Notes: generated from the letters alone by a model not told the origin. Shown: positions 2,325 through 59,595, counted from the stretch's first letter. The stretch is DNA of 64,000 nt from Candidatus Moraniibacteriota bacterium (GCA_016699425.1 CP064975.1:859957-923956), one strand, 5' to 3'. Numbers and translations are program-made.

Positions 2325-3782
2325 ATGGGCCTTTCACGCTTTCGCAGTTTCATCTTTTGGGTCTTCACACTGTCTTTCTTTGCGACGGCTGGATTCATCA
2401 TCTTCTATGCCTTCGGCTACCGCTACAGCCAAGAGCGCGGTATTTTCGTTTATTCCGGATCGATTACTGTCAGTGTACTCCCTCAGTCCGTTGACATCGC
2501 GATCGACAACGAACCACTCTCGCCAAAGCGCTATGGCATCTTGAACGAAACCATTCACATCACCGGTCTGATGCCGGGTGAACACCTCCTCACCGTTTCT
2601 GCTCCTGGATACCGTCCCTGGTCGAAAAAGGTGACTATCCAAAGTGGTGTCTCCAGCGAATTCTGGAATATCATCCTGACTCGCACAGATTATCCCGGCG
2701 TACCGCTCCCCAATACGGCGGGTACTACCCGCATCTACCCCCATCCAGATTCTGATCTCTTGGCCCTCGCCAAGGAGCGAGCAGACGAAGCGAGTGTTGT
2801 CGTCTACGACCGCACCGCACAATCGGGACGGGAAGTCTTTGCCCGAAACGGGACGACCTTCGATTTTGATACTTCAGAGAACTTTGAATGGTCCCCGAAC
2901 GGGAAGAAAATCCTCTTGCCGCTCGTCGAAAACGGAGTTCGGACTTACTACATCGTCAACATCGCTGACGGAGCGGTCGAAAAACTCTCGGATATCGTGC
3001 CGGGACTGACGCCCTCGAGCGCCCGCTGGAACGCAACCGGCAACGAAGAGCTGATATTCCTGGCGGCTGGCGCGCTCTACCGTTTTGATACAGTCGACAC
3101 TCGCACACCGCTCCTCCTCACGACCGACGTCCAGGCATTCGAGATAACCGACAATTATATTTACACTGCCGCAAGCGGGAGTGGTACGGTCTCGCGCTTT
3201 CGAAACAGTGGGAGCGGTGAGAACCAGACCGAGATCACCCCGCCCGTCGGAGAAGATCTCGGAATCAATGCCTATGTCCTCGATGTCTACGATGAAGAAC
3301 GCATGGCCCTCCTCGAGCGAGCCGGACAGAAACGACTCTTCATCTACAACCAAACACCCGAGAAAAAATACGGCTTCCAGGAGATCGCGACCGGTGTCGA
3401 GCGTTTCCAATTCTCCAATGATGGGAAGAAACTTCTTTTTGCCAGTACGAATGAAATCGGTGTCTACTTCACCAGGATTTGGGACGTCCAGCCTCGCCGG
3501 ATGGAAAACGATACCGCCCAAATCGCCCGATTTTCTGACCCCATCACCAATGTCACCTGGAGCGAGGACTATGAGCACATCCTCTTCACTCGCGGTCAGA
3601 CATTGAAAATCATCGAGCTCGATGGCCGGAGCGGCCGGGCGATCAATGACATCAAGTCATTTGCCACGGCCCCCAGTCAAATCCTTCCCCTCTTCTCCGA
3701 AAACCAGCTCTTCATCGCTACTCCAGGTACAGATATCGACTCCATCGTTTTCCCCGAACCCCAAGGCCTCTTCGGACAATAG
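2325..3782 (+). CDS. membrane-anchored PEGA-domain / beta-propeller (TolB-like) repeat protein
   Basis: N-terminal TM, PEGA-like segment (SITVSVLPQSVDIAIDNEPL), then repeated propeller-like blades. Confidence 0.6.
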   Translation: MGLSRFRSFIFWVFTLSFFATAGFIIFYAFGYRYSQERGIFVYSGSITVSVLPQSVDIAIDNEPLSPKRYGILNETIHITGLMPGEHLLTVSAPGYRPWSKKVTIQSGVSSEFWNIILTRTDYPGVPLPNTAGTTRIYPHPDSDLLALAKERADEASVVVYDRTAQSGREVFARNGTTFDFDTSENFEWSPNGKKILLPLVENGVRTYYIVNIADGAVEKLSDIVPGLTPSSARWNATGNEELIFLAAGALYRFDTVDTRTPLLLTTDVQAFEITDNYIYTAASGSGTVSRFRNSGSGENQTEITPPVGEDLGINAYVLDVYDEERMALLERAGQKRLFIYNQTPEKKYGFQEIATGVERFQFSNDGKKLLFASTNEIGVYFTRIWDVQPRRMENDTAQIARFSDPITNVTWSEDYEHILFTRGQTLKIIELDGRSGRAINDIKSFATAPSQILPLFSENQLFIATPGTDIDSIVFPEPQGLFGQ

Positions 3783-3857: not shown

Positions 3858-3892
3858 GACGCATCCCCCCCCCCCGGATGCGTCTTTCTTTT
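3858..3892. terminator. Rho-independent terminator with 11-C homopolymer loop, between convergent genes
   Basis: gacgcatcc-C11-ggatgcgtc followed by tttctttt. Confidence 0.6.
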
Positions 3893-55143: not shown

Positions 55144-56405
55144 TTATCTCGTCTCTCGAGTGATACTCGCCCCGATCGCCGAGAGTCGTTTCTCAATTCG
55201 CTCATAGCCGCGATCAACCTGATAGATATCCTCGATAATGGTCTCACCAGATGCTGTCAGAGCGGCAATGATAAGCGATGCCCCGGCCCGCAGATCATAG
55301 CTCTTGATGACAGTCCCCCGGAGCGGTGTCCGGCCATGGACGAGCACCTGATGCGGATTGAGGACGGTCAGCTTCGCCCCATTTTTTCCGACTCAACCAC
55401 ATAATTGAACCGCCCCTCAAACATCGTATCGAAAATAAGCGTCTCACCCTCTGCCTGGGTCGCGAGCACGGCGAGCGGTGCCTGGATATCGGTCGGGATG
55501 CCAGGATACGGTCGAGTGTCGATCTTCGGCACCGCCCGAAGCGTCTCGGCCGGATGCACCGTGATCGCATCTGGGGCGATGGTGAAGTGCGCACCGAATT
55601 CCTTCAACTTTTCTAGGACGATATCGAGATCATCTTCGCGGGCATGCTCAACCGTGATTTCACTCCCCGTCGCGACTCCGAGGGCGAGAAAGGTCGCGGC
55701 TTCATTGTGGTCCGGCATGATAGCATGCGTCGCACCCGCAAGTTCGGAGCGACCCGTGATGACGATCGTGTGCGTCCCGAGTCCAGAAACTTGGGCGCCC
55801 ATCTTTTGGAGAAAGCGTCCGAGGTCGACAACATGTGGCTCGCAGGCCGCGATCTTGATGACAGTCTCGTCCGGCAAGATGGCCGCGAGCATCATCGCAT
55901 TTTCGGTCGCGGTGACCGAGAGTTCCCGCAAGACGACTTTCCCAGCATGCCGTCCGCTCGCTTCAATCACGTAACCTTTCTCTGTCAGCGTGATCGCGAT
56001 GCCAAGCTTAGCGAGCGCATCGACATGTGTATCCACCGGCCGCGCCCCGATGACACAGCCACCCGGTTGACGCAGCTCGAAATGATCGAAGCGCGCCGAC
56101 AGCGACCCGAGGAGCAAGATCGACGAACGGAGCCGCTTCACCTTGTCCTGGTCAGCGCGCGCCGGGTCAATCGTCCCTGGAGTGATGACAACCGTCCGCT
56201 CTCCCTGCCACTCGACCGTCGCTCCCAGGCTCTCGACGATTTCGAGCATGCGGAACACATCCTCGATCCGCGGCATATTCTCGAGTACCGAACGCTCACG
56301 AGACAAGAGCGTCGCCGCGATGATCGGCGTCGCCGCATTCTTCAGGCCATAGACGGGAATAGTCCCGGCGAGCCGTTTTCCACCTTGGATACGAAAGACT
56401 TCCAT
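55144..56405 (-). pseudogene. murA: UDP-N-acetylglucosamine 1-carboxyvinyltransferase interrupted by -1 frameshift in an A7/T7 run (or homopolymer sequencing error)
   Basis: Two adjacent MurA-homologous ORFs (55368..56405 and 55144..55347) in different frames; frame restored if the tract ccccattttttt at ~55398-55404 has one more T. Confidence 0.7.
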
Positions 56406-56716: not shown

Positions 56717-57589
56717 TCAAAGCTGATTCGCTATCTTCTGTTGTAGTTTCCTCCCATTCCCCCACCCAAGCATTCCGAGGTACGAAGCTACTGTTTCTTC
56801 TTTTCCTCCAGTGGCCTCCACTCGTCGCAGCATCCGCCGCTTCGTCACCGTCCGGAGTACTCGGTGATCCGAGAAATGCACCCAGCCGAGGAAATCCACT
56901 CCGCTTGCGACAGTTCTGATGAACACCTTGTCGGGGTGGAGCTCGAGTCGAAGATTGAGTCTGAGAAACGCATCCATCAGAATGAGTATATTTTTCAACT
57001 CATTTTCATTCTTGGAAAATACGACGAAATCATCTGCATACCGGATGTAATATTTCGCTTTCAGTTGCTGTTTCACAAACTGGTCGAGCTCGTTGAGATA
57101 GATATTGATGAGGAGTTGCGAAGTCAAATTGCCAAGCGGAAGCCCTCGGCCAGGTGTCCCCGAATCAAAGCTGGTGATGACTCTTTCCAGCAGCCAGAGC
57201 GTATCGGGATCAGCGATGTGTTTTTTGAGGATACCTATGAGCACACCCTGGTCGACCGAGGCGAAGCATTTCCTGATATCGCCCTTCAGCACCCAGACCG
57301 TCCGAGTGTGATTGTTCGAGACCTTCCGACCAAATGTCCGAAAACGATTGAGGGCTCGGTGTACTCCCTTCCCAATCCGACACGAATACGAATCAGCGAT
57401 GAAGGTCCGGTCAAAGCATGGATAGAGGGTACGATAGATCGCATGATGAAGGAGTCGGTCTCGCACTGACGCCTTGTGGATATCTCGCGGTTTCGGATCA
57501 TTCACCCTGAAGGCCTGGTATGGGCCGTGCGTATAGGTTCTCGTCTTGAGTGATTCATGGAGAGCGATCAGATGATCCATGAGATGCAA
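56717..57589 (-). CDS. DGR reverse transcriptase (track ORF from TTG; conserved N-terminal motifs continue in frame upstream to ~57725 through a G9 tract)
   Basis: YADD box (YIRYADDFVVF); DGR-specific LPLGNLTSQLLINIY; TYTHGPY; upstream in-frame IISIDNLLLAWTEFKRGKTKKR matches DGR RT N-terminus. Confidence 0.88.
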   Translation of the reverse strand: MHLMDHLIALHESLKTRTYTHGPYQAFRVNDPKPRDIHKASVRDRLLHHAIYRTLYPCFDRTFIADSYSCRIGKGVHRALNRFRTFGRKVSNNHTRTVWVLKGDIRKCFASVDQGVLIGILKKHIADPDTLWLLERVITSFDSGTPGRGLPLGNLTSQLLINIYLNELDQFVKQQLKAKYYIRYADDFVVFSKNENELKNILILMDAFLRLNLRLELHPDKVFIRTVASGVDFLGWVHFSDHRVLRTVTKRRMLRRVEATGGKEETVASYLGMLGWGNGRKLQQKIANQL

Positions 57590-57742
57590 TTCAAACTCCT
57601 GGACGTCTCTCTTCTTGGTTTTTCCCCGTTTGAACTCGGTCCAGGCGAGGAGAAGGTTATCGATGGAAATGATATCATCATAGGTGATATCTAATTTCCT
57701 TTTCTTCGCATATGCCTCAAATGACGCCCCCCCCCGAAGCTC

Positions 57743-58087
57743 TTGCCGATTCTTGAGAAACTAAAGATTGCATACGCTTTGTGGTATAGCTTTTTGCTTA
57801 TCCTACCAAAAACCCATCGGCATTCGCTCGGATCGAGAATTGATGATTTGTTTGTTGAGACAATCGAGGGAATAGCCACCGCAGCTTTTCTCTCGCCAGT
57901 GGAGAAACTTCCCTATGTGAAGTATGGGGTGAGAAAGCTCGACACCCTCAAGATACTCCTCATGATCCTCTGGGAGACCAAGTCACTGGATGACAAGAAA
58001 TATATCGCTCTTTCGGAGAGACTGAATGAGATAGGCAGAATGCTCGGCGGCTGGCAAGGACAGCTCCAAAAGAAAACTCTCCCGTAG
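57743..58087 (+). CDS. avd: DGR accessory variability determinant (Avd); TTG start right after C9 tract
   Basis: PKTHRHSLGSRIDD and C-terminal NEIGRMLGGWQGQLQKK match Avd four-helix-bundle family hallmarks. Confidence 0.8.
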   Translation: MPILEKLKIAYALWYSFLLILPKTHRHSLGSRIDDLFVETIEGIATAAFLSPVEKLPYVKYGVRKLDTLKILLMILWETKSLDDKKYIALSERLNEIGRMLGGWQGQLQKKTLP

Positions 58088-58106
58088 AAGGAGAGAATGA
58101 AGAGAC

Positions 58107-58260
58107 TGGCGAGACGGGGAACGCGAAGGCTCCATCATCGTTCCAGTTGTTGCCCGGGTTATCGTAGTAGGCATTCACCTGCTGCCCATCGTCGTTACGG
58201 TTCGATTCGAGGATGTTCGGGTTACCGTCGGAAATGTATATTCTGCCACCTATACCACCA
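58107..58260 (-). repeat. DGR template repeat (TR), Asn-codon rich
   Basis: ~150-bp copy of target 3' end; 19 of ~23 mismatches are TR-adenines (coding sense); reads NAYYDNPGNNWNDDGAFAFPVS. Confidence 0.85.
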
Positions 58261-58627
58261 CCCGTTGACTACTCGCCGGGTTGAATCGTATCCGGTATCT
58301 CCAATACCTTAGCAGAATAGACCAAGTATCTTCATTTTTTAACCCTTCAACTTGCTCAGGGTCATCCTGAGTCTTTTATCGAAGGATGAAGTGTCTGCAC
58401 AAGCCACTCTCTTTGAAGCCGTAATCGCAAAGACTCTCGGCTTGTGGATACTGGATTCGGCCGCGGAAAACCGTAGTCGCCCGCAGATTCGCTTACTACC
58501 AATTTCAGTATATCAAAATAATAAATTTGAAGAAAATGTAAACCCCGCACTACCGTTCGGTAAAATGCGGGGCCCAAGGACTAAGTATCAAGGGTCTAAG
58601 AGACCAAAGGTACAGAGTCCGAAGTGC

Positions 58628-59335
58628 TTATTGCGAGACGGGGAACGCGAAGGCTCCATCATCGTGCCAGTAGTGGCCCGGGTAAGCGCAGTAGGCAAGC
58701 AGCTGCTGCCCAACGACGTACCGGTACGAAGCGAGGAAGTCCGGGCTACCGTCGGAATCGATGATGGGTTCGTGGGGCACGGCGACGTAGTAGATGCCCC
58801 AGCGCTCCAGTTGCTCATCAGAAATCGCTTCCCGGATGAGGAGTGCCAGTTCACCGCGGAGGTCATTAGACTTCCCGTAGTCGCGCTCACCCCTTGCCCG
58901 TAGGTTGGCAGTAGTGCGCTCGGTATCGGTATCGAACTCCTTCTTGCCGAACAAGAGCGCAACGGTGTATTGCTTACCCGGCTCCAAGCGATGCTTCTCG
59001 TTGTAGTCGGGCTTGCCGAGGATATCTCTCGCCCATTTGGTGAAGTTCATCCCGCCAGTTTCGCCGTGTTTGGACCACTCCTCATTCGTCCAGCCACGGC
59101 CGGTCAGAGTGACGAGGATACGGCCGTGCTTGTCGGTCTTGTAAAGCGGGCCGAGGCCGAGGAGCTTGCGGAACTCGTCACGCGGCGGAATAGTTCCCGC
59201 CACGCAAGCTTCCGCGATATCCGCGATCCTGCCTTCGCCCAGGAGCTTATCTTGCCAGAGCTCCGGGGTGACGCCTTTTTGCAGGAGAGTGTCGTGAAGC
59301 TTCGTAACTTGCGGGAATGAAATAGAGGTGCACAT
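58628..59335 (-). CDS. DGR target (variable) protein, VR at C-terminus
   Basis: 235-aa ORF; C-terminal ...LLAYCAYPGHYWHDDGAFAFPVSQ corresponds to TR; small hairpin gggtctaagagacc and terminator downstream. Confidence 0.8.
   Translation of the reverse strand: MCTSISFPQVTKLHDTLLQKGVTPELWQDKLLGEGRIADIAEACVAGTIPPRDEFRKLLGLGPLYKTDKHGRILVTLTGRGWTNEEWSKHGETGGMNFTKWARDILGKPDYNEKHRLEPGKQYTVALLFGKKEFDTDTERTTANLRARGERDYGKSNDLRGELALLIREAISDEQLERWGIYYVAVPHEPIIDSDGSPDFLASYRYVVGQQLLAYCAYPGHYWHDDGAFAFPVSQ
58630..58785 (-). repeat. DGR variable repeat (VR)
   Basis: Aligned to TR with adenine-specific substitutions. Confidence 0.85.
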
Positions 59336-59595
59336 TGCAGTCTCCTAACTATGCTAGTCCTTGCGGGTAGCCGCTATAAGCTCTCGAAAGATTCGAGTTT
59401 GCCAGAGCAGAGAAAGGCCTAGGAAAGCCACTTTCTGCTCTGGCAAAAATCATGATTTTTAACGAACAATCCATTATACACCTTTTTCCTGTTTCTGTCC
59501 AGGGTAATATATTCGAGCGCGAAAAAGAGGCTTTCTAGAGCCTCTTACCACGAGCTACACATCTACTCGCTATCCGGCTAGTGCGTGCCACCTCG

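Follow-up and report, generated by a model that had tools for sequence, protein, structure and literature searches.

Our results point to a C9/G9 tract, located inside the antisense-overlapping 5' ends of avd and the reverse transcriptase (RT) gene of a DGR from a Candidatus Moraniibacteriota bacterium, as a likely contingency switch, in the form of a hypermutable simple-sequence repeat, for a Patescibacteria DGR. With slightly less confidence, sequence comparison leads us to propose that Patescibacteria DGRs carry a built-in repeat switch, and that in about one-third of them a single repeat in the antisense-overlapping starts gates avd and RT together. An earlier note on this DNA, a stretch of 64,000 nucleotides (the window), had raised the idea of a slipped-strand phase switch on the DGR. 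This idea is now supported, because a repeat is conserved at the avd/RT junction of related elements and its length varies between otherwise identical sequences.

Results

The DGR of the window and its homopolymer

The window contains a complete DGR with a target gene carrying a variable repeat (VR), a template repeat (TR), a divergent avd and an RT gene. Its features are as follows.

56717..57773, minus strand: DGR reverse transcriptase; full ORF from ATG 57773 only at a tract length of 8 or 11
57712..58087, plus strand: avd (DGR accessory variability determinant); full ORF only at a tract length of 8 or 11
57712..57773, no strand assigned: antisense overlap of the ATG-initiated 5' coding ends of avd and RT, 62 bp, with the repeat inside
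57727..57735, no strand assigned: simple-sequence repeat C9/G9, the proposed slipped-strand switch; the same position bears a repeat in relatives
58077..58095, minus strand: terminator-like hairpin and T-run from a consensus scan, directly 3' of the TR and overlapping the avd stop
58109..58233, minus strand: TR, a 125-nt repeat 85% identical to the VR
58633..58757, minus strand: VR, at the 3' end of the target gene
58628..59335, minus strand: DGR target gene, 235 aa, with the VR in its C-terminus

The RT matches Pfam RVT_1 (E = 1.8e-23), and the LPLGNLTSQ and YADD motifs are read in its ORF; among the matches listed, its closest homologues sit beside avd in the fetched CPR loci. Its frame is open from the tract region to 56717, encoding ...LRGGASFEAYAKKRKLDITYDDIISIDNLLLAWTEFKRGKTKKR, and upstream it continues across both the conserved IISIDNLLLAWTEFKRGK segment and the G-run; the first ATG, GTG or TTG in the RT frame is TTG 57589. 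The NCBI call begins at ATG 57580 and gives a truncated 287-aa product (QQR78369.1, identical to our P0001). As assembled, avd is in frame only from TTG 57743 to 58087 and encodes a 114-aa four-helix protein, which matches Pfam bAvd (PF22296, E = 2.5e-11, 44.5 bits against a cut-off of 40) and reaches 62 bits, under the cut-off of 80, with NCBIfam DivGenRetAVD (NF033474).

Seventeen of the 19 mismatches between TR and VR fall at TR adenines and two at other bases; 17 of the 32 TR adenines are changed, and the 3' 35 nt of the two repeats are identical. The VR lies inside the target gene and ends 5 nt before the stop codon. No match to the 235-aa target protein was found in Pfam or NCBIfam. The two non-adenine mismatches, T to G and G to C, suggest either some drift after the most recent retrohoming event or errors made by RT at positions other than A.

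Several further elements were observed around these genes. The hairpin at 58077-58095 could terminate transcription of the TR ahead of an antisense run through avd. A weak Rfam match to RT-7 RNA, a family associated with reverse transcriptases, falls in the 390-nt VR-TR spacer (58384-58440, minus strand; 21 bits, gathering score 117, E = 0.04) and is probably due to chance. An inverted repeat with 21-nt arms, 86% complementary and separated by an 8-nt loop, lies at 59398-59447, just upstream of the target gene start. Downstream of RT, murA follows both in the window and in the lineage of P0058 (loci L086-L090), so that the DGR occupies a conserved chromosomal context and does not lie on an obvious mobile element.

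The tract reads C9 at 57727-57735 on the plus (avd) strand, in the context ...CATATGCCTCAAATGACG-C9-GAAGCTCTTGCCGATTCTTGAG..., and G9 on the RT strand. Its coordinates and frames, described in the earlier note as a C9/G9 in the overlapping 5' ends of divergent RT and avd genes, were confirmed. The 64-kb window has just one other G/C run of at least 7, and by a hand estimate assuming independent bases about 0.6 C9 runs are expected in 64 kb at 53% GC, so a lone C9 is not significant by itself. That other run, a C11 at 3865-3875 after an ORF at 2325..3782, makes up the loop in a terminator-like hairpin (GACGCATCC ... GGATGCGTC, then a T-run).

We rebuilt the window sequence with tract lengths from 6 to 13 and translated both genes. 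Only lengths of 8 and 11 gave a 124- or 125-aa Avd from ATG 57712, with the N-terminus MPQMTPPPKLLPILEKLK..., and a 351- or 352-aa RT from ATG 57773 on the minus strand, reading MQSLVSQESARASGGASFEAY...IISIDNLL... (also written MQSLVSQESARASGGASFEAYAKKRKLDITYDDIISIDNLL...). The simulation thus bears out the claim that contraction to 8 or expansion to 11 restores an ATG start to both genes. For metaproteome matching, we name the peptides MPQMTPPPK / TPPPK-LLPILEK and MQSLVSQESAR / ASGGASFEAYAK. At the assembled length of 9, the ORFs from the avd and RT start codons stop after 14 and 18 codons, respectively, ATG 57773 being in a different frame from RT. The ATG at 57721 named in the earlier note is indeed out of the avd frame, but it is the second methionine of that short ORF, the first being ATG 57712; likewise the divergent overlap is real but measures 62 bp (57712-57773) rather than about 50 bp. 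Like established contingency loci, the tract is uninterrupted and of a hypermutable length, has a repeat unit that is not a multiple of three, and lies inside both ATG-initiated frames.

Consensus scanning of the window, together with reading of the sequence, gave no Shine-Dalgarno match upstream of either ATG, and the same scan gave no promoter match upstream of either ATG and no sigma-70 promoter at the tract. A known RNA family at the locus was rejected, the Rfam matches being below threshold and none over the tract being significant.

A simple repeat marks the avd/RT junction of related DGRs

Two scans with RT as the query yielded 160 Patescibacteria loci among the matches listed, of more than 1,100, with RT identities of 58-77%. 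Further loci from exact-protein look-ups brought the survey to 171 related Patescibacteria DGR loci. Among the matches listed, avd is divergent from RT and directly adjoins it in 156 of the 171. The position of avd on the strand opposite to RT, TR and target, which had been called unusual, is instead the norm of the clade.

A comparison of orthologous DGRs had been proposed beforehand, with orthologues lacking any tract as the outcome that would speak against a switch. Among the matches listed, ~158 of ~163 informative loci (~97%) bear a simple repeat at the junction, and that objection fails. The loci were distributed as follows.

Poly-G of at least 6 at the junction (range 6-16, mode 9-10): 144 loci
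(GA)n at the junction: 5 loci
(GT)n at the junction: 7 loci
(CTGG)n at the junction: 2 loci
Contig start in a C49 or C52 run exactly at the junction: 2 loci
Upstream DNA too short to judge: about 6 loci
No repeat at the junction: 5 loci

Across the 144 poly-G loci, lengths of 6, 7, 8, 9, 10 and 11 occur in 5, 8, 17, 44, 44 and 20 loci, respectively, and lengths of 12-16 in 6. The other repeats range from (GA)8 to (GA)18, (GT)7 to (GT)12 and (CTGG)9 to (CTGG)10. G/C runs of at least 8 number 131 in the junctions and five in the 926 kb of flanking sequence of the same loci. This enrichment, together with the conservation at the junction, led us to reject a chance homopolymer. A junction repeat whose type changes while its position does not argues for selection on mutability and not on a particular sequence.

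Contigs L040 and L058 begin with C52 (1-52) and C49 (1-49) exactly at the junction, and a scaffold N gap abuts the tract in L070; assemblies tend to break or to gain poly-G artefacts here. Three viral relatives were also matched, and the sole one with junction DNA and a reversed avd has no repeat, its avd being in frame.

Two RT layouts and a shared phase

The layout of RT relative to the repeat was analyzed in 139 loci. RT has its own ATG downstream of the tract, 10-13 codons before the IIS motif, in 70 of them, and here only avd lies in the repeat's frame. Another 48 of the 139, the window included, have no ATG, GTG or TTG between tract and IIS and thus show the overlapping layout. The RT frame of this start-less class is nevertheless open in 47 of 48 loci, which means that translation must enter through the tract.

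An ATG upstream of the tract reads into it in 44 of the 48 start-less loci, and in all 44 the tract phase required by RT is the phase required by avd. The loci with their own downstream RT ATG served as the control class: an upstream ATG is present in 34 of 70, and the two phases agree in 14 of 34 (Fisher p = 7e-10), or in 7 of 34 when the nearest ATG is used. The observation that one length change would fix both genes, made for the window alone, therefore extends across the clade. Because the control class stands at chance level, a generic antisense open-frame bias was rejected as the source of the agreement. A single inherited event was rejected too, since the start-less loci are dispersed across the RT tree (24 parsimony changes on 128 tips) and their ATG positions differ.

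Locus L082, with 73% RT identity and the same layout, is jointly ON at G9, with the N-termini MSHQIIPPPKLLPILQKLK and MFPLVSVKSATASGGGLFDETYRGKKKL...IIS, and L081 and the syntenic P0058 lineage are jointly OFF, as is the window. About 35 loci have a conserved His codon CAT (xHxY) near the N-terminus of RT, ~7 codons before IIS, that is the antisense of an avd ATG lying 34-37 nt from the tract; this triplet may serve both RT and avd.

The repeat might instead act on transcription, either as a spacer within overlapping divergent promoters or as a 5'-UTR element of them, its length tuning RNA polymerase binding. This reading draws on the control class, where TAnnnT directly follows the tract in 34 of the 70 loci with their own RT ATG, at least 17 of them with exactly 7 nt to the ATG, an arrangement resembling a -10 box from which a leaderless RT mRNA would be made. 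L174 (696-703) has its avd and RT starts back to back, with 2 nt between the codons (CATATATG), so that promoters must lie inside the neighbouring gene. As a general account it is unlikely: TAnnnT occurs in only 3 of the 48 loci of the window's class, the window tract itself has no promoter match, and (GA)18 and (CTGG)10, at 36-44 nt, are too long for a -35/-10 spacer. Furthermore, every repeat unit is a non-multiple of three, and the 44 of 44 frame concordance finds no transcriptional explanation. A transcriptional role is plausible in the class with its own RT ATG, where it may coexist with the frame mode.

Comparison places the avd start upstream of the repeat

Comparison of the sequences argues that the Avd start really is upstream of the repeat. 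Directly after the tract, the avd frame encodes a conserved (K/R)LLP(V/L)L(E/Q)KLK..Y..W helix, which places the repeat inside the N-terminal coding region of Avd, with the start ATG on one side and the conserved LLPxL helix on the other. Among the 139 loci, the Leu codon of LP is TTG in 50, and at least 47 have TTA, CTA, CTC or CTT there, none of which is a start codon; the first canonical start 3' of the tract lies at least 10 codons into Avd, or is absent, in 38. A start at the LP Leu codon was therefore rejected as a general rule, although it is possible for the window, where this codon is TTG. The window's TTG 57743 corresponds to position 1 of the NCBIfam Avd model, and Avd might thus be made independently of the tract.

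The repeat-less loci L141, L156/157 and L166 and the viral-labelled L171 all have avd in frame with an ATG that precedes LP by 4-12 codons, giving the N-termini MEIKLLP.., MNQTTPIPNRATLP.., MENSSLP.. and MSTTLP... In-frame repeat-bearing loci read M-x(2-14)-(T/S)PPP-(R/K)LLP..., with HTHT, SLSL or ASQP(ASQP) in place of PPP when the repeat on this strand is (AC)n, (TC)n or (CCAG)n. Since the linker peptide varies with the type of repeat, the peptide seems irrelevant, and the repeat is the thing that is kept.

These linkers also bear on the proposal that the tract is functionally fixed, being kept for its product (a Pro3/Gly3 linker) or its fold (a nucleic-acid structure). Although in-frame Avd N-termini do read the tract as PPP, we find this highly implausible. 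Only CCC codons are used, with no synonymous variation and with lengths from 6 to 16, and the (AC)n, (TC)n and (CCAG)n substitutes encode quite different peptides. Two thirds of the loci are out of frame, five loci have no repeat at all, and no significant Rfam match covers the tract.

Repeat length varies between otherwise identical sequences

Lineage groups were defined as at least two contigs with 100% identical flanks of at least 400 nt, which gave 11 groups, all of them from relatives. Despite the identical flanks, repeat length differs in 4 of the 11.

L086, L088, L089 and L090 versus L087 (P0058 lineage): G10 versus G13
L041 versus L128: (GT)9 versus (GT)8
L161 versus L165: G10 versus G8
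L174 and L175 versus L176: G10 versus G9

Same-strain ON and OFF alleles of avd are found in two of these groups. With identical flanks, avd is ON in L128, reading MSEPHTHTHGTLPII..., and OFF in L041, which has no in-frame start. A 139-aa avd is called through the tract in L174 and L175, and none is called in L176. Sister taxa of the RT tree show the same behaviour: L008 (n = 8, ON) and L061 (n = 9) have the same ATG positions and differ in phase by tract length alone, and L019 and L032 likewise. Length differences between assemblies could partly be homopolymer consensus noise, which is less likely for the (GT)n case.

Among the loci with a repeat, 43 have an upstream ATG in frame with avd (ON) and 93 have avd out of frame (OFF). 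The ON phase is found in 11 of 47 loci of the window's RT class and, for avd, in 25 of 68 elsewhere. A proportion of about one-third fits free drift between phases, and random frames would give likewise. Tracts with one base too many are the commonest in the window's class (23 of 47), and the G10 and G13 alleles of the P0058 lineage share the same OFF phase. Either of these observations could reflect decoding that differs from our frame model.

Programmed recoding would be such a case, with RNA polymerase slippage or ribosomal frameshifting giving low, constant expression from any tract length. The prevalence of out-of-frame loci, the one-base-too-long excess and the shared phase of G10 and G13 within one lineage are what it would account for. 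We nonetheless judge it improbable, more so than the transcriptional reading, since the di- and tetranucleotide replacements are unlike slippage or recoding sites and the length polymorphism is seen at the DNA level. Moreover, the established cases of slippage by bacterial RNA polymerase are mainly at A/T runs. Slippage during replication, with a change of reading frame, remains our preferred reading of the length variation.

The tract count in the window

A separate question is whether the assembled count of 9 is correct. The true tract could be 11 (or 8), with ordinary ATG-initiated genes; such an assembly error would concern the state of the window and not the conserved repeat. We regard it as a genuine but lesser possibility. 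The closest warning is murA (55144..56405, minus strand), 2.3 kb away, which is split by the loss of one G in a G-run and is intact at 422 aa in syntenic relatives. Its break at ~55377-55380 leaves pieces of 345 and 67 aa; the assembly reads ATGGGGCG, and ATGGGGGCG would be in frame. This break is probably an assembly indel, or else murA is a pseudogene. With such an indel in a homopolymer nearby, the count of 9 is untrustworthy, and the tract may in truth measure 10 or 11. The single 1.217-Mb contig suggests a long-read assembly, and a run of 9 is far more prone to error than one of 5.

Against this stand the intact S2, S4 and MurD genes of the same assembly, which also carries the C11 elsewhere. 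An assembly riddled with frameshifts was rejected: Pfam searches on 10 suspect ORFs found the S2, S4, RpoA, MurD and repressor domains complete and only murA clearly broken, and a scan of open-frame junctions for frameshifts was too noisy for use. In addition, two thirds of the relatives are out of phase too, many of them on contigs named in the style of short-read assemblers (k127_, k141_, NODE_), so that the OFF state is typical and not an anomaly. If the count is right, the window element as assembled (n = 9) is in the joint OFF phase. The earlier description of the 9-mer as a joint OFF state thus holds as far as both ORFs abort at this length, while the length itself is put in doubt by the murA indel.

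Discussion

We then propose a model for the switch. Replication slippage would frequently add or remove one or more bases of the tract. In one phase of three (8 or 11 in the window), Avd from ATG 57712 and RT from ATG 57773 on the minus strand would both be made, and mutagenic retrohoming would run. In the other two phases, both ORFs would abort within 14-28 codons and the DGR would fall silent, with a possible trickle of Avd from TTG 57743. In the sister class, where RT has its own ATG, the in-frame phase would switch Avd only. In the Bordetella phage DGR, cDNA synthesis needs Avd as well as RT, and silencing Avd alone should therefore stop the element, so that the DGR would be gated in either RT layout. 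At the level of the population, a small and shifting fraction of cells would diversify the target protein while most keep the current variant.

Translational contingency loci with poly-G/C tracts are well described, including hmbR/hpuA (PMC3786947) and the G/C tracts of C. jejuni (PMC8355987, PMC4965091). The loci of Campylobacter jejuni, Neisseria and Haemophilus resemble the present case in that a pure G/C run of ~8-13 sits close to an ORF's 5' end, where indels shift the frame, and in occurring as ON and OFF alleles in near-identical genomes, with about one third of sequenced alleles ON. They differ in three respects. The gated target here is a retroelement machinery that diversifies a protein, not a surface or modification gene; the hosts are environmental ultra-small Patescibacteria, not host-adapted pathogens; and in the window's class one tract sits in two antisense-overlapping ORFs and switches both.

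Control of two divergent genes at once by one repeat between them is also seen in hifA/hifB of H. influenzae, where (TA)n in the promoter spacer of the divergent fimbrial genes acts on transcription. The repeat described here lies instead inside the coding 5' ends and would act through the reading frame, a promoter role being possible in the sister class. Phasevarions and switchable mutators, such as phase-variable mod methyltransferases and repeat tracts in mismatch-repair genes, likewise place a stochastic repeat switch atop a second-order generator of variation. Whereas their effects, on the epigenome or the mutation rate, extend over the whole genome, the mutator gated here is aimed at one 125-nt gene segment. 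To our knowledge, there is no precedent for a translational contingency switch of two genes on two strands, or for a stochastic gate on a DGR.

Compared with known DGRs, the window element has the same parts as that of Bordetella phage BPP-1 and the same adenine-specific signature of TR-to-VR mutagenesis. The order in BPP-1 is mtd-avd-TR-brt, with avd co-directional with and upstream of TR and brt, and we know of no repeat tract or phase switch in that element. The window has the order target/VR, TR, reversed avd and RT, and the reversed avd is also the norm in the surveyed loci (156/171).

In the parts consulted of Wu et al. 2018 (PMC5758913), the B subtypes of DGRs differ in how avd and TR are ordered and oriented, and the B3 subtype makes up 90% of CPR DGRs; from these parts we infer that B3 is the reversed-avd layout. 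The same parts contain no passage on a repeat at the avd/RT junction or on overlapping starts, and the parts consulted of a 2024 DGR survey contain no description of a junction repeat or of a phase-variable DGR. Searches of the full-text literature on DGRs together with repeats or phase variation returned no such description, although an account elsewhere is possible. Repeat-based contingency loci and CPR DGRs with a reversed avd are thus already known. As far as checked, what is new is the combination of a repeat switch with a CPR DGR, and a single repeat inside two antisense-overlapping starts.

The model has practical consequences for the reading of CPR genomes. It would explain why RT and avd are frequently mis-called, truncated or apparently frameshifted there, as in the 287-aa call in the window and in numerous RT calls beginning M...GGG, and it predicts contig breaks at the junction. 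Tract length would also provide a read-level marker for DGR activity in a metagenome.

DGR activity overwrites a working target protein with a random variant, and how this cost is limited is poorly understood outside the Bordetella phage. If our model is true, a repeat switch would limit the cost of DGRs in CPR bacteria, the largest DGR reservoir. A small and changing subpopulation would mutate while the rest keep their allele, which would amount to bet-hedging stacked on targeted hypermutation.
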